From the NCBI RefSeq assembly GCF_030684315.1, contig NC_081392.1:9159113-9223112 (forward strand): 64,000 nucleotides of DNA, written 5' to 3'. This DNA is from Stegostoma tigrinum. Taxonomy: Eukaryota. The notes below the pieces were generated by a model. The model was not told the origin of the DNA. It did no database searches and saw nothing but the letters and a program-made list of their open reading frames with translations. The translations under genes were made by a program, and so were the position numbers. Shown here piece by piece: positions 1 through 61,903 of the stretch; position 1 is the first letter of the stretch, and the number at the start of each line of letters is the position of its first letter.

Positions 1-148
1 TGGGATGCGGTGGGGGAAGGGGAGATTTTGAAACTTGTGAAGTTCACATTGATACCATTAGGCTGCAGGGTTCCCAAGCGGAACATGAGTTGCTGTTCCT
101 GCAACCTTCGGGTGGCATCATTGTGGCACTGCAGGAGGTCCATGATGG
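1..148 (-). mobile_element. Penelope-like element fragment (GIY-YIG C-terminal region), inverted relative to the copy at 150-835
   Basis: Near reverse complement of ~254-402; truncated by the window edge. Confidence 0.75.
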
Positions 149-149
149 C

Positions 150-835
150 CAGAGGACCGCTTTGCAGAACACCTCCGCTCGGTTCGCAACAAACAACTGC
201 ACCTCCCAGTCGCAAACCATTTCCACTCCCCCCTCCCATTCTTTAGATGACATGTCCATCACGGGCCTCCTGCAGTGCCACAATGATTCCACCCGAAGGT
301 TGCAGGAATGGCAACTCATATTCCACTTGGGAACCCTGCAGCCCAATGGTATCAATGTGGACTTCACCAGCTTTAAAATCTCCCCTTCCCCCACCGCATC
401 CCAAAACCAGCCCAGTTCGTCCCCTCCCCCCACTGCACCACACAACCAGCCCAGCTCTTCCTCTCCACCCACTGCATCCCAAAACCAGTCCAACCTGTCC
501 CTGCCTCCCTAACCTGTTCTTCCTCTCACCCATCCCTTCCTCCCACCCCAAGCCGCACCTCCATCTCCTACCTACTGACCTCATCCCACCTCCTTGACCT
601 GTCCGTCCTCCCTGGACTGACCTATCCCCTCCCTACCTCCCCACCTATACTCTCCTCTCCACCTATCTTCTTTTCTCTCCATCTTCGGTCCGCCTCCCCC
701 TCTCTCCCTATTTATTCCAGAACCCTCACCCCATCCCCCTCTCTGATGAAGGGTCTAGGCCCGAAACGTCAGCTTTTGTGCTCCTGAGATGCTGCTGGGC
801 CTGCTGTGTTCATGCAGCCTCACATTTTATTATCT
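150..835 (+). mobile_element. Penelope-like element 3' portion: GIY-YIG endonuclease tail, pyrimidine-rich 3' region, hammerhead motif, TTATCT end
   Basis: Translation HSLDDMSITGLLQCHNDSTRRLQEWQLIFHLGTLQPNGINVDF resembles the C-terminus of PLE GIY-YIG domains. Near-identical copies lie at 39519-40115 and 48567-49000. Confidence 0.75.
741..772 (+). ncRNA. Minimal type I hammerhead ribozyme motif (PLE-associated)
   Basis: ct-CTGATGA-a-GGGTctagGCCC-GAAAC-GTC-ag: core CUGAUGA, stem II, GAAA, very short stem III, GUC cleavage triplet. Confidence 0.7.
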
Positions 836-1339
836 AGGATACAGCAGAGGTAAGTCTCAGAATGAAGTTCCCTCTAGTGTGTGCATCAAACATTCCCAGC
901 TCAGGTGAGGCATGATATTAGAAACCCGGTCCAGTTCCCAGACAAGCTCTTGCATAGCTGATTGAAATATCAATTGCTTGCTTTAGTCAAGATTACTGAA
1001 CAGCTGGAGATCGTCCACAGACTGCTAACCAGACAAGGCAATTTATGCAGGAAAACCCCATGTTTAAGTTTCTCCCCTGCCACTGTTTCATTGAAATCCC
1101 ACTTCAATTAGCAGCAACGCACACCATTGACTTTTCAGGAGTATAAACATCAAGAGTGGTGTGGAAGGAGGCACTAAATAGTGTTGTGTTACTTCAGTCA
1201 GCAGAGACAAACACCAACAGTGTGTAAACCATTGCAATGCAGATGAAAAAACAAACTGGTCTGTGGATAATACCTCACAGAGTAACATTCTGACCCCAAG
1301 GGGTTCACTCACTTCCTAACTAATCCAACTGGCTGGAAA

Positions 1340-5369: not shown

Positions 5370-5390
5370 TGTGTTATTTCAGTAAAGTTT

Positions 5391-5437
5391 GAAAGCTCCA
5401 GGTGCAATGTCACGGAGACTCTGGGTGAAGAGCTTTC
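5391..5437 (-). promoter_or_regulatory. U1A polyadenylation inhibition element (PIE) in SNRPA 3'UTR
   Basis: GAAAGC-UCUUCAC-CCAG-A-GUC-UCCGU-GAC-AUUGCAC-CUGG-A-GCUUUC: three stems and two 7+1 asymmetric loops, including the canonical AUUGCAC. Confidence 0.9.
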
Positions 5438-5733
5438 TTACACAGTGTGATTAAGCCAAACTGTTGCTTGCCGTAGCCAGTCAGACACGTTCACTCAAAA
5501 ATGTTGCCAATCAGGGCCAGCCAAATCCAAAGTAATACCATTAAGTGGAGAACTAGAATTCATCCTTTTCCTGGAGTCAGGAGAAGGCCATAATTTGCTT
5601 TTTGACATTATTAAAAAAAAGTGAATTATTTTAAGTCGATGGACCCAGGAATAGGGCAAGGGGAGGATCCAACACCTGGATATGAACAGTGATCCAATAG
5701 GCAGGGCAAAGCTGATGAGTCTCCTCACTTAAC

Positions 5734-7251: not shown

Positions 7252-7625
7252 CTGCCTGCTTTCTATTTATCAGTTTAGGTTTCCTTGGGTTGGTGATGCC
7301 ATTTCCTGTGTTGGTGGTGTCATTTCCTGTTCTTTTTCTCAGAAGGTGGTAGATGGGCTCCAAATCAATGTGTTTGTTGATGGAGTTCCAGTTGGAATGC
7401 TATGCTTCTAGGAAATGTCATCAACAAAGGAAATGACATCACCAACCCAAGGAAACCTAAACACAAATAGAAAGCAGGACATAACACAAGCGCTTCATCG
7501 GAGGCTCACTGATGATGTTACCTAGAATGGTGACAAAACGTCTGAAAACAAACCTTCCAGCTCAGCAAGCAAACTTACATCCAGAACCTCAACCTGAGCT
7601 ACAAATCTTCTCAAAACTCGCTAAC
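7252..7625. mobile_element. Penelope-like fragment, head-to-head inverted pair with decayed hammerhead motif (7507-7544)
   Basis: ~7255-7306 is the reverse complement of ~7429-7478. CTGATGA-T-GTTACC-TAGAAT-GGTGAC-AAAAC-GTC follows. Confidence 0.6.
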
Positions 7626-19823: not shown

Positions 19824-20436
19824 GTGAGAGCTGAACACTAAGTGAAATTTTAACTAAACATCAGCTGAAATAGAAGATTCACATATCGAACTGTGAGGAA
19901 TGTACCAAGACACTTAATATCTTTAGCAGTTTTCCTGGAAATTTAAGCAATGTTTTGAAAATAAAATAACTTTGTTTAGGGGCATCATGGACCACAAGTT
20001 GGCATTTATTGCCCATCCATAATTACTCTGTCATAATCATGTATTAATTGTAAGCAGATGTTAGGCTTGTTTAGAGTTTCACCTGTGTACAGGCTTGAGT
20101 TAGGAGATGTTTGCTTGTGATGCTTCAACCTAGAAGTAAACATTAAGACAGAGTAAAGATTGATGAATGATAATCCTGATGTCAAACTGGCTTTTTGGGA
20201 TAGAACACTCTGGACAACTAATTCAATACAGCTAAGCAGTTAAGATACTAGAATGGGAGTTACCCAGCAGCCAGACTGATAAAGACAGCAGGTATGGAAG
20301 GAATTAGTGAACCAAATTCGGATTTTAATTCCCTTTTTTCTTGTTTTCCAAATTTAATTCAAATTCTCAAGCTGCTGTGGTGAGATTTGAACTCATTCTC
20401 TTGTCTAAGCTGTGTAACAAAGCCACTATTTTACCA

Positions 20437-20643
20437 GAGATAGTAGGAACTGCAGAATCTGAGATAACAAGGTGTAGAGCTGGATGAACACAGCAGGCCA
20501 AGCAGCATCAGAGGAGCAGGAAAGCTGATGTTTCGGGCCTAGACCTTTCTTCGAAGAAGGCTATAGGCCTAAAACGACAGCTTTCCTGCTCCTCTGCTGC
20601 TGCTTGCCCTGCTGTGTTCATCCAGCTCTACACCTTGTTATCT
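20437..20643. mobile_element. Palindromic (head-to-head) short PLE insertion
   Basis: Inverted arms; TSD CACTA(T/C)TTTACCA at 20424-20436 and 20644-20656. Confidence 0.85.
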
Positions 20644-20948
20644 CACTACTTTACCATGTCCTGTTGCAAGATTTTTTACAGGCCTATCGCATTTAAAACA
20701 ATGATCACCTTGCTGTGTAGAGGTGATCTGTATAGGCCTCAAGATAAATCAATTTAATTAGTGTTTAATGGGTTTAATGGATTGCTAGATGGTTGAAATT
20801 GGTTGTGTCTAGCTCAAGAGGTGTCAAAATATGGTTTTGGGACTTCTTGACCATGATGGGAAGACACAAAATTTTTATGTGAGTAGTTTGATTTCCAATG
20901 CTTAGTGCCTATTTAGTAGCTTACATATTGCTTGTGATTATTGTGTAG

Positions 20949-26753: not shown

Positions 26754-27388
26754 GGGTGGGGTCTGGGGGCAGGTGCTCCTCAAACCCACTCACTCTCCGA
26801 TAACATCTCTTTTAAACATTTGCCTTATTCAACATGCATAGTCTCGTGACAGGTCACCAGAGTCGAAAAATTTTCCAGCTTCATGCAGCCATCTTGGAAA
26901 ATGTCAGATCTAGAAGTGGGATATCCAAAGAAGAATTGTGCTGAACTCTGAAACATTAACTCTGTTTCTCCATCCACAGATCTTGTCATTCCTGCTGAGT
27001 TTTGCCAGTGCTTTCGTTTCTTAATCCAACTATCATGGTGGCGTCATTGCTGCTCTGCAGTTATACTGGATGAGTGGGCACATAAGCACTATTACTTAGT
27101 ATGGAGCACACACAAACAGGACTTCTGAACTTATCTTCCAAAACATTCCCTCAGGCAGCCTATGGTTCATGAACATCTTTGCTGGGCTATGAACCACAAG
27201 CCTTTAAATACTGACGTGATACATGCAAACTGCAGCAGAGTAGGCTGTGCCTATTCGCACAACGGTGCTGGCCAGGTCAGTCATGCTGACATTCTTAAAA
27301 GGCCCTGGCAAAAATCTGAATATCCAGGAATGGTCTGAGCCAGGCCACCATTTTTTAAAGTTGTCAAAATCAGCTCAGTAAAAATCTT

Positions 27389-27538
27389 AGATAATGAAAT
27401 GTGAGGTTGGATGAACACAGCAGGCCCAGCAGCATCTCAGGAGCACAAGCTCCTGAGGTGCTGCTGGGCCTGCTGTGTTCATCCAGCCTCACATTTTATT
27501 ATCTTGGATTCTCCAGCATCTGCAGTTCCCATTATCTC
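27389..27538. mobile_element. Palindromic short PLE insertion
   Basis: Inverted arms; exact 13 bp TSD CAGTAAAAATCTT at 27376-27388 and 27539-27551. Confidence 0.88.
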
Positions 27539-27762
27539 CAGTAAAAATCTTGCCCTTTTCGCTTCCCCCACACCCATTTTAGGGCCAATGTCCTGTCCTT
27601 GAACCACAAGATTAAAAAAAATTAAACACCAATTATGTTGAATCCCAAAGGCCAATCTACTGAAACATACTCAATAATCCTCTTCATTTGAATGGAAAGC
27701 AGGTGAGGAGCTAAGCACTGAGTGATCATGAGAGTATTGCAACTAAAGAAAAGAATTCTCAC

Positions 27763-34720: not shown

Positions 34721-35196
34721 GCAGCTCCAACAAGTTATTTTGATTGCAAATTCCCTCCCTTCCATTTCATTTATGGCAGCATTTGTTACCCATCTCCAAC
34801 TGCCCTTGAACCAAGTGGTTTGCTGGGCCATTTCAGAAGGCAGTTTGGAAACAACCATGTTGTTGTGGGTCTGGAGTCACATTTCAATCAAACCAGGTGA
34901 CTAATTTTCTTCCCTAAATGACAATGAACCAGATGAGTTTTTAATCACAGATAACAAGGTGTGGAGCTGGATGAACACAACAGGCCAAGCAGCATCTCAG
35001 GAGCACAAAAGCTGACGTTTCAGGTCTAGACCCTTCACCACTGTTGGTTATATAGTAGCCTTTAACTCTGTCCTTCCTTTTAATTCTGAATTTGTTGTTG
35101 AATTCAAATTTCACGATCTTCCATCTTAGGAATTAAACTCATTCAGCAAAAACATGAGCCTGGTGTTCTAGATTAGTAGCCCAATGACATTGCTAC

Positions 35197-35261
35197 TGAG
35201 AGGAAAAAGCTAGCCAGAATGTTTTTTTATAAAAATATTTCTGGCTGGCTTTTTCCTCTCA
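35197..35261. repeat. 65 bp inverted repeat (23 bp arms, 1 mismatch)
   Basis: TGAGAGGAAAAAGCTAGCCAGAA ... TTCTGGCTGGCTTTTTCCTCTCA. Confidence 0.85.
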
Positions 35262-35619
35262 CTAATTTTTCTATCGTTATTAATTGCTTTGTCAGTTTTT
35301 GGCAATCCTTGCAACTAGTCCAGTTCAGATTCTGATTAGTGTTATCTGATTCCATTTTCTCCACCAATCTGAGGATCCAGCACATCCAACTTCACCATGA
35401 GTCTTTGAAAACTTGCACAAAAAGTTATCCTATTCTTCAACACTTCAAACCATGCACCAAGGGGAGCCCCTGTAGCCTGGTCCAGGAAAGGATATCTGTG
35501 ATATCCCAAGGCTGAGCAGGATGGGTTGTCTCTGAGATCACGCACTCCCCACCTCTCAAATTACCCACTTCACCCCCCCCCCACCATCTCCACTCTCCTC
35601 ACCCCCACTGGTTGTGGGG

Positions 35620-35970
35620 GAAGTCTCTGGGATCACCCACACCCACCTTGGTGGGGGGTCTCTGGGATCACCCACCCCCCCCTTGGTGGGGGGGGGGTGG
35701 TCTCTGGGATCACCCACCCCCCCCTTGGTGGGGGGGGGGGTGGTCTCTGGGATCACCCACCCCCCCCTTGGTGGGGGGGGGTGGTCTCTGGGATCACCCA
35801 CTCCCCCCTTGGTGGGGGGGGGGTGGTCTCTGGGATCACCCACTCCCCCCTTGGTGGGGGGGGGTGGTCTCTGGGATCACCCACTCCCCCCTTGGTGGGG
35901 GGGGGCGTGTTGTCTCTGGGATCACCCACTCCCCCCTTGGTGGGGGGGTGGTCTCTGGGATCACCCATTT
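35620..35970. repeat. ~38-42 bp G/C-run minisatellite (about 9 units) in YIF1B intron 1
   Basis: Repeated GTCTCTGGGATCACCCAC(C/T)CnTTGGTGnTG. Confidence 0.9.
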
Positions 35971-37870: not shown

Positions 37871-38118
37871 AGAGATAAGGGGAACTGCAGATGCTGGAGA
37901 ATCCGAGATAACAAAGTGTGGGGCTGGATGAACACAGCAGGACAAGCAGCATCTCAGGAGCACAAAAGCTGACGTTTCAGGCCTAGACCCTTCATCAGAG
38001 AGGGTCTAGGCCCGAAACGTCAGCTTTTGTGCTCCTAAGATGCTGCTTGTCCTGCTGTGTTCATCCAGCCCCACACTTTGTTATCTTGGATTCTCCAGCA
38101 TCTGCAGTTCCCATTATC
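37871..38118. mobile_element. Palindromic short PLE insertion with junction at the hammerhead motif
   Basis: Near-perfect ~120 bp inverted arms joined at CCCTTCATCAGAGAGGGTCTAGG; no clear TSD. Confidence 0.85.
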
Positions 38119-43406: not shown

Positions 43407-43606
43407 AAAATGAAAACGGAAATCACTGAAAAACCTTAGCAGGTCCGGCAGCATCTGTGGAGAGAAATCAGAGTCAATGTTTCGAGATTGAGTGGCTTTT
43501 CCTCGGAGCTCTGGACCCCAAACATTAACTCTGATTTCTCTCCATGGAATTTCTCTCCACAGTTGCTGCCAGGCAGGCTGAGCTTTTCCAGCCATTTTAA
43601 ATTTTG
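43407..43606. mobile_element. Palindromic insertion of a second short PLE-type family
   Basis: Inverted arms (GGCAGCATCTGTGGAGAGAAATCAGAGT vs ACTCTGATTTCTCTCC..TGCTGCC); TSD TTTGCAA(T/C)CTTT at 43395-43406 and 43607-43618. Confidence 0.65.
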
Positions 43607-48240: not shown

Positions 48241-48258
48241 ATGATCCAGGGACCAGAG

Positions 48259-48403
48259 ACGGCCAAGTGTGGAGCTGGATGAACACAGCAGGTCAAGCAG
48301 CATCTCAGGAGCAGAAGAGCTGATGCTGCTGGGCCTGTTGTGTTCATCCAGCCTCACACTGTGTTACCTCGGATTCTCCAGCATCGGCAGTTCCCACTAT
48401 CTC
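48259..48403. mobile_element. Palindromic short PLE insertion
   Basis: Inverted arms; direct repeat TGATCCAGGGACCAGAG at 48242-48258 and 48404-48420. Confidence 0.85.
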
Positions 48404-48566
48404 TGATCCAGGGACCAGAGCAGGTTATCGTATCAGCTCCCGGCACATGGCTATCACTGGCTGGGCCGCCATTAATGGCCTGTCCCTATTTGCCCCTTGA
48501 GGAGGTGGTGGTGAGGTGCCCCTTGTGAACTGCTGCCATCCATGCCCTGTTATGGGAAGGACATTA

Positions 48567-50110: not shown

Positions 50111-52243
50111 GTTAGATTATGCAAGATTTAGGGAGCATAGGATGGGGAAGGAAACTGCAGGGGATGGGCACATTAGAAATGTGGAGCTTATTCAAGGAAA
50201 ATCTCCTGTGTGTCCTAGATAGGTATGTACCTGTCAGGCAGGGAGGAAGCTGTAGAGTGCGTGAGCCATGGTTTACGAAGCAAGTGGAATCTCTGGTCAA
50301 GAGGAAGAAGAAGGCTTATGTTAGGATGAGATGTGAAGGCTCAGTTAGGGCGCTTGAGGGCTATGAGGTAGCCAGGACAGACCTAAAGAGAGAGGTCAGA
50401 AGAGCCAGGAGACATGAGAAGTTGTTGGCGGATAGGATCAGGGTAAACCCTAAGGCTTTCAATTGGTATTTAAGGAATAAAAGAATGACGCAAGTAAGAT
50501 TAGGCCCAATCAAGGATAGTAGTGGTAAGTTGTGTGTGGAGTCAGATGAGATAGGGGAAGCGCTAAATGAATATTTTTCAACAGTATTCACTCTAGAAAA
50601 CGACAATGTTGTCGAGGAGAATACTGAGATACAGGCTACTAGACTAGTTGGGATTGAGGTTCACAAGGAAGAGGTATTAGAAATCCTACAGAGGGTGAAG
50701 ATAGATAAGTCCCCTGAGCCGGATGGGATTTATCCTCGGATCCTCTGGGAAGCCAGGGAGGAGATTGCCAAGCCTTTGACATTGATCTTTAACTCTTCAT
50801 TGTCTACAGGAATAGTGCCAGACAACTGGAGGATAGCAAATGTGGTTCCCCTGTTCAAGAAGGGGAGTAGAGACAACCCTGGTAATTATAGACCAGTGAG
50901 CCTTACCTCAGTTGTTGGTAAAGTGTTGGAAGAGGTTATAAGGGATAGGATTTATAATCATCTAGAAAATAATAAATTGATTAGTAATAGTCAGCACGGT
51001 TTTGTGAAGAGAAGGTCGTGCCTCACAAACCTTATTGAGTTCTTTGAGAAGGTGACCAAACAGGTAGATGAGAGTAAACCGGTTGATGTGGTGTATATGG
51101 ATTTCAGCAAGGCGTTCGATAAGGTTCCCCACAGTAGGCTTTTGTAGAAAATGTGGAGGAATGGAATTGTGGGAGATATAGCAGTTTGGATCGGAAATTG
51201 GCTTGTTGAAAGAAGACAGAGGGTAGTGGTTGATGGGAAATGTTCATCCTGGAGACCAGTTACTAGTGGTGTACCGCAAGGGTCGGTGTTGGGTCCACTG
51301 CTGTTTGTAATTTTTATAAATGACCTGGATGGGGGCGTAGAAGGATGGGTTAGTAAATTTGCAGATGACACTAAGGTTGGTGGAGTTGTGGATACTGACG
51401 AAGGATGCTGTCGGTTGCAGAGAGACATAGATAAGCTGCAGAGCTGGGCTGAGAGGTGGCAAATGGAGTTTAATGCAGACAAGTGTGAGGTGATACACTT
51501 TGGTAGAAGTAACCAGAAGGCAAAGTACAGGGCTAATGGTAAGATTCTTAGTAGTGTAGGTGAGCAGAGACATCTCGGTGTCCATGTACACAGATCCTTG
51601 AAAGTTGCCACCCAGGTTGACAGGGCTGTTAAGAAGGCACACAGTGTTTTAGCTTTTATTAATAGAGGAATCGAGTTCCGGAACCAAGAGGTTATGGTGA
51701 AGCTGTACAAAACTCTGGTGCGGCCGCACTTGGAGTATTGTGTACAGTTCTGGTCACCGCATTATAAGAAGGATGTGGAAGCTTTGGAAAGGGTGCAGAG
51801 GAGATTTACTAGGATGTTGCCTGGTATGGAGGGAAGATCTTACGAGGAAAGGCTGAGGAACTTGAGGCTGTTTTCATTAGAGAGAAGAAGGTTGAGAGGT
51901 GACTTAATTGAAACATATAAAATAATCAGATAGGGTGGATAGGGAGAACCTTTTTCCTAGGATGGTGACAGCAAGCACGAGGGGGCATAGCTTGAAATTG
52001 AGGGGTGAAAGACATAGGACAGATGTCAGAGGTAGTTTCTTTACTCAGAGGGTAGTAAGGGAATGGAACGCTTTGCCTGCAACAGTAGTAGATTCGCCAA
52101 CTTTAAGTACATTTAAGTCGTCATTGGATAAGCATATGGACGTACATGGAATAGTGTAGGTTAGATGGGCTTGAGATCGGTATGAAGGCTGGCACAACAT
52201 CGAGGGCCGAAGGGCCTGTACTGTGCTGTAATGTTCTATGTTC
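50111..52243 (+). mobile_element. Young 5'-truncated CR1 LINE (ORF2 RT), inserted into a SINE
   Basis: ORFs 50119-51147 and 51151-51933 are separated by one TAG. Motifs NYRPVSLTS, QHGF, DFSKAFDKVPH, GVPQGSVLGP and FADDTK; GTTCTATGTTCT tail. Confidence 0.95.
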
Positions 52244-52916: not shown

Positions 52917-53576
52917 TATGTGCTCTCTTACTGGGGCACAGTTTTATCTCACAAATTCAACCACAGAATGTTTACAACCCCGAAGGTGGCCATTTGGCCC
53001 ATCCTATCTGTGCTGGCTGTCCAAAACAGCAATCCCCTTGGTGCCATTCCCCTACACTTTCCCCAGAACGTCACACACTCTTCCTTTTCAGACGATCTAA
53101 TTTCATATTGTAAGTGTTGTATTGGAACTGCCTGCACTAAATCTCTGAGCTGAGTTCCAGATGACAAGCATTCTCTCACTGTGCGTGCAGTTGGCTTGTG
53201 GTGCAGCTTAATGCCAACAACGTGGGGTCAATTCCTGCACCAGCTGAGACTACCATGGTGCCATTCGGCCCGTATCCCTCTAAACTGTTCCTATGCATGC
53301 ACCTGTCCATATGTTTTTTAAATGTTGCACTGTTCCCACCTCTACCGCTTCCTCTGGCAGCTTGCTTCAGATATTTCCCACCCTTTGCGTGAAAAAGTTG
53401 TCTGGCGCGTCCCTTTTATATCTTTCCTCTCTCACCGTAAAGCTGTGCTGTCTGGATTTGGACTCCTCCACTCTGGGGAAAAGACTTTGCCATCTCCCCC
53501 TGTCTATGAATTAGTCTCCTTCTCAATCTCTCCCCTCGCCTGAGATATGGTGGCCCTCAGGTTAAACCTCTACCAG

Positions 53577-53803
53577 GATAATAAAATGTGAGGCTGGATG
53601 AACACAGCAGGCCAAGCAGCATCTCAGGAGCACAAAAGCTGACGTTTCGGGCCTAGACCCTTCATCAGACCCTTCTCTGATGAAGGGTCTAGGCCCGAAA
53701 CGTCAGCTTTTGTGCTCCTGAGATGCTGCTTGGCCTGCTGTGTTCATCCAGCCTCACATTTTATTATCTTGGAATCTCCAGCATCTGCAGTTCCCATTAT
53801 CTC
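53577..53803. mobile_element. Palindromic short PLE insertion with intact hammerhead motifs on both strands
   Basis: HHR on - at 53639-53668 and on + at 53677-53706; exact 14 bp TSD TAAACCTCTACCAG at 53563-53576 and 53804-53817. Confidence 0.92.
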
Positions 53804-54054
53804 TAAACCTCTACCAGTTGCCTTTCTCTTTCTGAATCTCTCCACCAACGAAAACTCTTTCTCCATCTGCACTCAGTTTGAATATCCTTTATTATCGCAT
53901 GCATTCAGTATTAACTACAGTGAAAAGTGTGTGTCATCGCTTGTATATAAGCACCATTCACAGAATAAAATAAGCAAAAACATAACTTAAAGAGCGTCCA
54001 ACTTTACCTTCTCTGCTGCTACAGCATACCACGGCCAGGGTCCCTCACCGGACT

Positions 54055-54515
54055 GCACCAGCCCACACCACGCTGCAGGAAGAATGATCCGGCTCCGGGT
54101 TTTCCAGCCCACACCACGCAGGAAGAATGGTCCCGCTCCGGGTTTTCCAGCTCACACCACGCAGGGAGAGGTGTCCCGCTCCGGGTTTTCCGGTCCACGC
54201 CATGTTGCAGAAAGAGAGGTGTCCCATTCCAGGTTTTCTAGCCCACGCCACGCAGGGAGAGGTGTCCCACTCCGGGTTTTCCAGCTCACACCACGCAGGG
54301 AGAGGTATCCGGCTCCGGGTTTTCCAGCCCACACCACGCTGCAGAGACAGTCTTCCCGCTCCAGATTTTCCAGCCCACATCATGCTGCAGAGACAGGTAT
54401 TCCACCCCGGGTTTTCCAGCCCACACCACGCAGGGAGAGGTATCCGGCTCCGGGTTTTCCAGCCCGCGCCACCTTGCAGAGACAGGGATTCCACTCCGGG
54501 TTTTCCAGCCCACAC
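54055..54515. repeat. GC-rich ~43-48 bp minisatellite (~10 units)
   Basis: Repeated CCAGCCCACACCACGCAGGGAGAGGT.TCC.GCTCCGGGTTTT. Confidence 0.88.
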
Positions 54516-54734
54516 CATACCGCTTGTCAGTGTCCGATCCCTGTGGAAGTGTGAATCCGGCTCCAGGTTTTACAAGCTGACCCAGAATCTCATGATGTTT
54601 TTTACACCTTAATCAAATCTCCTCTCAGCGCACTCTTCAAGGAAATCAGCCCCAACTAATCTAATCGTATCACTGAAGCTCTTCATCGCTGCTACCATTC
54701 TTGTCAACTCTGCAACCTCTTTCTTTCTCAGTGC

Positions 54735-55453
54735 ATTGAGTACAGGAGTTGGGAGGGTCATGTTGCGGCTGTACAGGACATTGGTTCAGAGATAATGGGA
54801 ACTGCAGATGCTGGAGAATCCAAGATAATAAAATGTGAGGCTGGATGAACACAGCAGGCCAAGCAGCATCTCAGGAGCACAAAAGCTGACGTTTCGGGCC
54901 TAGACCCTTCATCACAGAGCCACGTTTTGGAATGCTGTGTTCGGTTCTGGTCTCCCTGCTATAGGAACAACATTGCGAAACTTGAAAGGGTTCAGAAACT
55001 CTTACCAGGGTTGGAGGATTTGAGCTCCAGGAAGAGGCTGTATAGGCTGGGGCTGTTTTCCCCTGGAGCGTCGGTGGCTTCGGGCTGACCTTATAGAGGC
55101 TTATAAAATCATGGGGGGCATGGATAGCCAGGGTCTATTCCCCAGGGTAGGGGAATCCAAAGCCACAAAGTGTAAGTTTAAGGTGAGAGGGGAAAGATTC
55201 AAAAGGGACCTGAGGGATAACCTTTTCACGCAGAGGATGGTGCATGCATGGAATGAGCTGCCAGAGGAAGTGGTGGAGGCTGCTACAGTTACGACATTTA
55301 AAAGGCATCTGGATGGGTATATGTGTACGAAGGGTTTAGAGGGATATGGGCCAAATGCTGGCAAATGGGACTGGATTAATTTAGGATATCTGGTGGCGTG
55401 GATGAGTCGGACCAAGGGGTCTGTTTCCATGATATACACCTCCATGACTCTGT
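54735..55453 (+). mobile_element. CR1 3' fragment containing a short PLE insertion (54788-54914)
   Basis: GLFPRVGESK..FTQRMVHAWNELPEEVVEA and a CR1 tail. Confidence 0.8.
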
Positions 55454-58475: not shown

Positions 58476-58609
58476 ATAATCAATTGTCTTGATATCATTA
58501 GTAATGTAATTAACTAAAATTAATGTCCCTCAATTAACCCTCCTCACTTTGACAAGATAGTTCAGTGGGTATGTTTCCAGTAAAAAAATGCAGAGGCTAG
58601 TGATTTAAG

Positions 58610-58789
58610 AGATAGCAGGAACTGCAGATGTTGGAGAATCTGAGATAACACGGTGTAGAGCTGGATGAACACAGCAGGCCAAGCAGCATCTTAGGAGCAG
58701 GAAAGCTGACGTTTGGGGCCGAGACCCTTTTCTGAAGAAACATCAGCTTGGCCTGCTGTGTTCATCCAGCTCTTACACCTTGTTATGTA
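58610..58789. mobile_element. Palindromic short PLE insertion
   Basis: Inverted arms; TSD TAGTGATTTAAG at 58598-58609 and 58790-58801. Confidence 0.85.
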
Positions 58790-58863
58790 TAGTGATTTAA
58801 GGACATGTTTTCATTTAATTCACTCATTCATTTAACCTTACGCTAATTCTTGTTGTTTTGCAG

Positions 58864-61459: not shown

Positions 61460-61903
61460 CGTATGTGTGTGTGTGTGTGTGTGTTTGCAAGTGCATTAAT
61501 GTGTGTGTGCATTAATGTGTGTGCATGTGCATTAATGTGTGTGTACATGTGCATTAATGTGTGTGTGCATGTGCATTAATGTGTGTGTACATGTGCATTA
61601 ATGTGTGTGTGCATGTGCATTAATGTGTGTGCTTGTCGATTAATGTGTGTGTGCATGTGCATTAATGTGTGTGTGTACATGTGCATTAATGTGTGTGTGC
61701 ATGTGCATTAATGTGTGTGTGCATGTGCATTAATGTGTGTGTACATGTGCATTAATGTGTGTGTGCATGTGCATTAATGTGTGTGCTTGTCGATTAATGT
61801 GTGTGTGCATGTGCATTAATGTGTGTGTGTACATGTGCATTAATGTGTGTGTGCATGTGCATTAATGTGTGTGTGCATGTGCATTAATGTGTGTGTACAT
61901 GTG
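61460..61903. repeat. (TG)n-derived ~20-24 bp minisatellite
   Basis: Repeated GCATTAAT(GT)nGCATGT / (GT)nACATGT. Confidence 0.92.

Follow-up and report, generated by a model that had tools for sequence, protein, structure and literature searches.

Palindromic insertions of a Penelope-like element in Stegostoma tigrinum probably form when both cut target strands prime on one RNA

Results

A 64,000-nucleotide stretch of the Stegostoma tigrinum genome (assembly GCF_030684315.1, contig NC_081392.1, positions 9,159,113 to 9,223,112 of the forward strand; hereafter the window) carries palindromes made of two 3'-end fragments of a Penelope-like element (PLE), joined head to head with their tails outward. 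Our analysis indicates that each palindrome is probably one insertion, in which both cut strands of the target would have primed on one RNA, each from its own start site, the two sites lying 34 nt from each other. An earlier note on this DNA had described five such insertions bracketed by a target site duplication (TSD) and a sixth, at 37871-38118, without one; all six were located where it had placed them, and its attribution of them to a PLE with a minimal hammerhead, spread by a retro mechanism rather than as miniature inverted-repeat transposable elements (MITEs), is supported. It had also taken both outer ends to finish at or near the TTATCT terminus of a short element. Such termini are present, but there are two different ones, 34 nt apart, with five of the six palindromes using one each and 37871-38118 using the outer one twice, and the "short element" is in fact the 3' end of an autonomous PLE of about 3.5 kb.

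We number the element from the C of CTGATGA (+1, window position 53677 in the right arm of the palindrome described next) and designate the inner start site, at about +93, as S1 and the site 34 nt further out, at the end of the tail, as S2. In this palindrome, the left TSD copy (14 bp, 53563..53576, plus strand) exactly matches the right copy (14 bp, 53804..53817, plus strand) and occurs once in an empty paralogue of the host repeat. The tail-less left arm (53577..53669, minus strand) has its outer end at S1 (about +93) and its inner end at 0, and the tailed right arm (53670..53803, plus strand) spans about -6 to +127, with the tail at about 53770-53803 and the end at S2. Each arm holds a hammerhead core, at 53641..53668 on the minus strand and at 53677..53704 on the plus strand, the latter of the minimal type with CUGAUGA, a bulged A, stem II GGGU/GCCC and GAAAC-GUC, and with a cut predicted after 53704.

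Longer copies of the element run into an open reading frame (ORF) with reverse transcriptase (RT) motifs, a Cys-rich linker and a GIY-YIG domain, the order of RT followed by a C-terminal GIY-YIG endonuclease (EN) in one ORF that defines EN+ PLEs. The broken natural copy L002 matches RVT_1 (E 0.035) and GIY-YIG (E 0.0012), both below the Pfam cut-offs, and YIDD and LYIGET motifs are present in L002 and its sister copies. A pseudo-long terminal repeat (pLTR) passes through the tail into the 5' untranslated region (UTR) and ORF in L135, L141, L144 and L149, and 3' ends are bimodal (+90-96 and +125-139), as expected of an optional tail of 30-40 nt. The hammerhead shows the core boxes, the bulged base before stem II and a palindromic ACGU helix III, with a stem I of only about 2 bp by eye, and matches the description of minimal hammerheads in PMC4209133 (in part; sources so marked are cited for the available portion of their text). 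An Rfam scan of the window returned no hammerhead family match, and its matches to the palindromes were hairpin artefacts below the gathering score. The linker CNRRKCYTC lies between RT and EN; a Cys-rich linker is a feature of the Neptune clade (PMC8557442, in part), and by this linker the element looks more Neptune-like than Poseidon-like as a candidate clade assignment. Exact 50-61-mers of single subfamilies occur in 3,110, 19,197 and 12,374 genome copies, and the burst was therefore large and recent.

Paired copies follow a consistent geometry. In an unselected survey (11 hand-picked blocks, 1,364,000 bp, 262 3'-end matches), 74 adjacent pairs comprised 70 tail-out, 1 tail-in and 3 tandem, and 140 of the 262 arms belong to tail-out pairs. 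Among the 70 tail-out pairs, 59 have one tail, 4 have two, 1 has none and 6 have an indistinct end, giving 59 one-tailed pairs of 64 classifiable, and one of the four two-tailed pairs was later reclassified, in the analysis of young pairs, as one-tailed with a 15-bp TSD. TSDs of at least 12 bp accompany 46 of the 70, and arm lengths pair up (12 long-long, 6 mixed and 52 short-short; p = 1e-8). The palindromes are mostly hairpins of 150-250 bp, with arms from less than 60 nt to more than 2 kb. After the addition of pattern-selected loci, 87 young pairs were retained in which both arms are at least 92% identical to a natural reference with both ends present; of these, 79 were one-tailed, 3 two-tailed, 2 tail-less and 3 indistinct (79/84, p = 3e-18). 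Each one-tailed pair has one arm that stops at S1 and a second that goes on for another 34 nt to include the PLE tail. TSDs of at least 11 bp flank 75 of the 79 one-tailed young pairs (mode 14 bp; control 0.6%) and none of the 3 two-tailed pairs (Fisher p = 4e-4); as a measure of chance, repeats of at least 10 bp were found in 4 of 600 shuffled flank pairs. A tendency of the tail-less arm to reach further, seen in short pairs (26 versus 10), was discarded when it disappeared in the young set (37 versus 29, p = 0.39). Two-tailed insertions lacked a TSD in every case seen (window 37871-38118, L002:2228-5149, L167 and L269).

At 53 exact sites the target flanks are two-fold mirror-symmetric, with a purine 2 and 3 nt to the left of the TSD (40/53 and 46/53) and a pyrimidine 2 and 3 nt to its right (45/53 and 43/53), which fits the flanks that two equivalent nuclease sites would leave. 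This bias resembles the ATT preference of a PLE from Anolis (PMC11167929, in part). Host-repeat copies without the insertion overlap by the called TSD length within 2 bp at 9 of 15 testable loci, including 53563, and such paralogous empty sites hold a single TSD copy and no arm, in keeping with the claim of the earlier note that each palindrome is one integration event. Among contigs assembled from four sequencing runs over 52950-54050, none bridged the insertion and none revealed an orthologous empty site; joints of this kind are also present in contigs of a second organism, and about 1,200 of them in a single run from the present one.

Sequence variants and inner ends bear on how many RNAs were copied. 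Of 796 polymorphic positions, paired arms match at 739 (against an age-matched null of 81%, with a maximum of 87.5%), and both arms carry 24 of 117 rare variants (null 0.5%). Among 31 long pairs, 9 have inner ends no more than 25 nt apart, at positions particular to the locus (1.7 under the null and at most 7 across 20,000 shuffles; rho 0.60), and at one locus both arms carry a private single-nucleotide polymorphism and a private -86/+244 join inside one TSD. Given these shared rare variants and co-terminating arms, both arms likely copy the same RNA. Had the two strands instead primed on two separate RNAs from the same source locus, one per enzyme subunit, then the geometry, the TSD, the target symmetry, the subfamily concordance and the occurrence of long-short pairs (8/87) would all fit, and the minimal hammerhead, which is thought to act as a two-RNA dimer (PMC4209133, in part), could pair RNAs that share a 5' end. 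That account, however, leaves unexplained both the near-absence of two-tailed and two-tail-less pairs (5/84) and the locus-specific stops of the long pairs, and we regard it as improbable.

We also consider it unlikely that a single cDNA, or an antisense RNA (PMC3846280), folded back or self-primed to be copied as the second arm, which then joined the other target end, even though this course of events predicts the head-to-head geometry, shared variants, co-termination, central microhomology and a single TSD. A copy cannot exceed its template in length, but in 18 of 79 pairs the tail-less arm extends more than 20 nt beyond the tailed one on the 5' side (by up to 951 nt; the reverse is also found in 18 of 79), and one locus has a tail-less arm extending to -811 beside tailed units that start at -128. 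Nor can copying a tail-less cDNA add a tail. A short inverted stub accompanies 15 of the 121 solo copies examined. S1 is also the end of 13 solos with TSDs and is therefore a priming site in its own right. In the palindrome at L240:1497-1807 the two arms share a chimeric join to a stretch of the ORF in antisense, which suggests that an earlier palindrome was transcribed and then recopied.

Under double-ended priming on one RNA, a two-subunit enzyme (a dimer) would nick both strands about 14 bp apart and leave 3' overhangs of about 14 nt. One target end would then prime at S1 and the other at S2, making the tail the offset between the two priming sites, and both cDNAs would extend toward the same RNA 5' end. 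Short palindromes would arise by priming at the pLTR copy close to the 5' end of the RNA and stopping at the capped start (-3) or, in a smaller class, at the ribozyme-cut end (+29), and long ones by priming at the 3' pLTR and stopping at a break or stall. Host end-joining would fuse the two cDNA 3' ends, which at +29 would read self-complementary AGCT, and fill in the second strands, and RT might sometimes jump from the +29 end back to S2 to yield tandem arrays. The earlier note had likewise proposed priming from both cut strands, but had placed it at the RNA 3' end; internal start sites appear to be used instead, because the tail continues into the 5' UTR and ORF in full-length copies.

Most junctions are found at a wall immediately 5' of the hammerhead core: among 176 young short arms, 56 start in the interval -6 to +2, and no start falls in the interval -41 to -11. 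As had been noticed for the window, four of its six junctions fall at the hammerhead, where they touch the 5' edge of the core. The wall would correspond to a capped start site, predicted at about -3, 3 nt upstream of the core. In three of the four window copies found, a TATTTAT box precedes the core by 34 nt, and in the fourth by 36 nt, which places it about 30 nt upstream of a pyrimidine-rich or CCATTTC initiator-like sequence; the box at 709..715 (plus strand), a TATA-like element with a putative promoter role, stands 34 nt before a core, with a start site predicted at about 739-740. The TATA, initiator (Inr) and TCT consensus sequences and the G signature derived from a cap serve as guides to such sites. 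A G not belonging to the element stands before -3, -2 or -1 in 11 of 50 exact centres (the first of 9,533) and at 5 loci in a set of 33 tandem joins, and a solo tailed copy in the window (54789..54918, minus strand) begins at -3 with a G in front; the near-full-length copies L134 and L139 begin at +7. The 5' region folds no better than shuffled sequence (z 0.48). The TATA-like box differs from the promoter of Drosophila virilis Penelope, which is TATA-less and internal (PMC2377424, in part).

At the joints themselves, the first 50 of the 9,533 centres show 30 junction types, the commonest found 5 times (hand count). Microhomology of at least 2 nt is present at 28 of 61 insert-free joins (chance 15%), and 26 of the 87 young pairs have inserts at the centre, some apparently templated from nearby sequence. 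Two candidate causes were rejected: the nearly self-complementary stem II, to which the earlier note had drawn attention, accounts as a joining point for 1 of 87 young junctions, and the hammerhead cut cannot set the main wall, which lies about 30 nt upstream of it. Joining of cDNAs through the ribozyme region, also suggested there, applies at +29 by way of AGCT. We interpret the clustering of junctions near the hammerhead as a consequence of where the RNA 5' ends would be, with a predicted start 3 nt upstream of the core and a predicted cut at +29.

Copies that end at +29, which immediately follows the predicted GUC cut (GUC/AGC), are the most surprising result. Tail-to-unit tandem joins, counted by hand with one genome-wide pattern, resume at +29 in 66 of 93 cases and at 48 of 75 loci (55 of the 66 unambiguous, 11 with an overlap of 1-3 nt); the others comprise 14 at a TCT microhomology around +11 to +14 and 13 at scattered positions. 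Palindromes centred on AGCT at +29 to +32 gave 709 exact matches. We rejected a mere preference for microhomology as their cause, because 26 of 50 centres from that region (the first of 1,615) were AGCT and only 1 was ACGT, 5 nt away, and because a downstream GGCC centre was found in 9 among the first 50 of 112 loci, an estimated 20 or so against 709, a rough ratio given that the search pattern differs. Ending as they do at the predicted cut, these copies would be indirect evidence that the hammerhead cleaves itself in living cells. In the arrays L279 and L280, built of units of about 100 nt, six and five units start at +29, each unit differs in its tail end and added A's, and the outermost unit stops at S1 within a TSD. 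The variation on the tail side points to repeated run-off and re-priming, not to a ligated circle. Retrozyme-like tandem pLTR units of 329 nt (L260:2135-4550) and 362 nt (L258:2002-4318), with a hammerhead in each, were seen within TSD-bearing palindromes.

The shared AGCT junction bears directly on whether the palindromes were copied whole, either MITE-like or from palindromic master RNAs, or were assembled by two sequential insertions. The earlier note had held that identical junctions across many loci would indicate a unit copied whole, and such identity is partly seen, in that 709 loci share one exact junction; a few others recur up to 5 times in 50, one locus resembles a re-copied junction of an earlier palindrome, and re-copied palindromic RNA may contribute to the AGCT-centred class. 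Perfect AGCT-centred hairpins are also what snap-back at a self-complementary end, the fold-back course considered above, would yield. However, the 18 AGCT-centred palindromes viewed by eye belong to several subfamilies and differ in their outer ends, and are thus not copies of one master unit; 16 of them are one-tailed, 1 is two-tailed without a TSD and 1 has an end out of view, and a TSD was identified by script in 12 and by eye in about 3 more. The variety of junction types, the roughly 1,200 joints in one DNA run, the span of arm lengths, the asymmetric ends and the presence of +29 as a free end in non-palindromic tandem joins argue further against whole copying, and empty sites without an arm and a single TSD enclosing both arms argue against sequential insertion. 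These alternatives are already largely refuted for the bulk of the palindromes, and we consider them very improbable.

Discussion

Our findings favor a single insertion in which both target strands prime on one RNA, and a number of observations weigh against this interpretation. In the survey, 122 of 262 arms are unpaired, and TSDs of at least 11 bp occur at 23 of 106 stub-less solos (control 1%). Two-tailed palindromes without a TSD are not accounted for by the model, and 6 of the 15 paralogue tests gave no match to the called TSD or were uninformative. S1 ends lie about 1 nt further out in pairs than in unpaired arms (median +93 versus +92, p = 0.008). The inner ends of 22 of the 31 long pairs are more than 25 nt apart, and shared variants and co-termination are also predicted by fold-back, as shared variants are by later arm-to-arm conversion. 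The young set was partly selected, with 50 loci fetched by a tail-bearing pattern that excludes two tail-less arms, so that the unselected count is the fairer test of the one-tail rule. Finally, we infer the start site, the cap, the dimer and the cleavage for this element from DNA.

The architecture itself, an inverted pLTR with one tail and a TSD, is already published, and the family is known. In Adineta, the inverted pLTR, the tail and a 9-10 bp TSD have been described and antisense self-priming proposed (PMC3846280), an explanation of the palindromes that our data disfavor. As in the shark, Adineta Pen2a, D. virilis Penelope and Naiad/Chlamys have an inverted 5'-truncated copy head to head with a direct copy (PMC3846280; PMC2377424 and PMC8557442, in part), and in these EN+ PLEs a 30-40 bp tail is often present at one end only (PMC8557442, in part) and the unit lies inside one TSD (9-10 bp in Adineta). 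The shark palindromes differ in their near-strict one-tail rule, their TSD of about 14 bp, their symmetric target and their predominance of 150-250 bp hairpins. In vitro, the Anolis PLE Poseidon (PAc) cuts and extends both strands, uses two internal start sites that bound the tail, is predicted to be a dimer and, as here, has its hammerhead about 100 nt upstream of the start sites (PMC11167929, in part). We found no link between the two start sites and inverted insertions in the available portion of that source, which also reports that no RNA-seq reads end at the hammerhead cut and that cleavage is unnecessary in vitro, whereas shark genomic copies do end at the predicted cut.

Twin priming of L1, in which the second target strand primes a second cDNA, was reportedly put forward by Ostertag and Kazazian in 2001. 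L1 insertions of this kind and the shark palindromes both consist of two cDNAs joined by microhomology inside one TSD; in L1, however, the cDNAs cover different parts of the RNA and produce an inversion, whereas here they cover the same 3' segment from two fixed sites and produce a palindrome, which, unlike in L1, is the main paired outcome. Non-LTR retrozymes resemble the tandem arrays in consisting of short units derived from PLE pLTRs (bioRxiv 10.64898/2026.07.22.740005 and PMC4209133, both in part). Retrozymes have a hammerhead in each unit and identical joins, a form that the 329-nt array may resemble; in the +29 arrays the ribozyme core is missing and the join differs between units, and for these reasons they reflect template jumping, not copying of a ligated circle. 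MITEs are likewise short, abundant, hairpin-shaped and flanked by TSDs, and are distinguished by equal terminal inverted repeats and a fixed unit; here 79 of 87 young pairs have unequal ends, centres (30 types in 50) and lengths vary, and the parent encodes an RT.

Both the origin of inverted PLE structures and the one-sided tail have been described as unresolved (PMC8557442 and PMC11167929, in part), and the in vivo role of minimal hammerheads in PLEs was previously without evidence (PMC4209133, in part). Our literature search found no application of twin priming to PLEs, no genomic ends at a hammerhead cut, and no one-tail rule or evidence for one RNA. The counts presented here bring the tail, the TSD, the symmetry of the target and the two RNA 5' ends under a single model, testable in the existing in vitro system, and they imply that some 10^5 MITE-looking hairpins in this genome are retro products (70 per 1.364 Mb over 3.2 Gb, or about 160,000, an approximate number based on the 11 hand-picked blocks). 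With somewhat less assurance than for the palindromes themselves, we lean toward a broader proposal, that double-ended twin priming on one RNA may be the default mode of EN+ PLE integration, with the tail and the TSD of about 14 bp measuring the spacing of active sites in the dimer and the hundreds of insertions with GUC/AGC ends forming a germline record of in vivo cleavage whose 3' product was retrotransposed.

Other features of the window

The remaining palindromes vary around the same plan. That at 27389..27538 has a tail-less left and a tailed right arm, inner ends at +34/+38 and an exact 13-bp TSD (27376-27388 = 27539-27551), and that at 48259..48403, with the same order of arms, has a TSD of up to 17 bp (48242-48258 = 48404-48420) that partly overlaps the element end. 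Two belong to an older subfamily: 20437..20643, with a tailed left and a tail-less right arm, inner ends at about +3/-2 and a 13-bp TSD with 1 mismatch (20424-20436 and 20644-20656), and 58610..58789, with a tailed left arm to -1, a 9-nt linker, a tail-less right arm from +52 and a 12-bp TSD (58598-58609 = 58790-58801). The palindrome at 37871..38118, two-tailed and without a TSD, is joined at AGGG microhomology and represents the exception class. A seventh palindrome, of 1.26 kb and absent from the earlier note, straddles the window start; its right part (1..839) has a junction at about 152 in the GIY-YIG coding region and a tail-less right arm, and its 15-bp TSD has copies at 835-849 and about 435 nt upstream of the window.

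Elsewhere in the window, inverted repeats at 7273-7462, 35194-35264 and 43458-43544 show no match to the PLE, and ORF fragments of a non-LTR RT, which we take to be CR1/L2-like, lie at 50116-51933. Minisatellites with units of 41, 43 and 22 nt occupy 35653-35967, 54058-54518 and 61478-61903, respectively, and the minus strand at 5370-5440 gives a U1A_PIE-like Rfam match of 44.5 bits, below the cut-off of 50.
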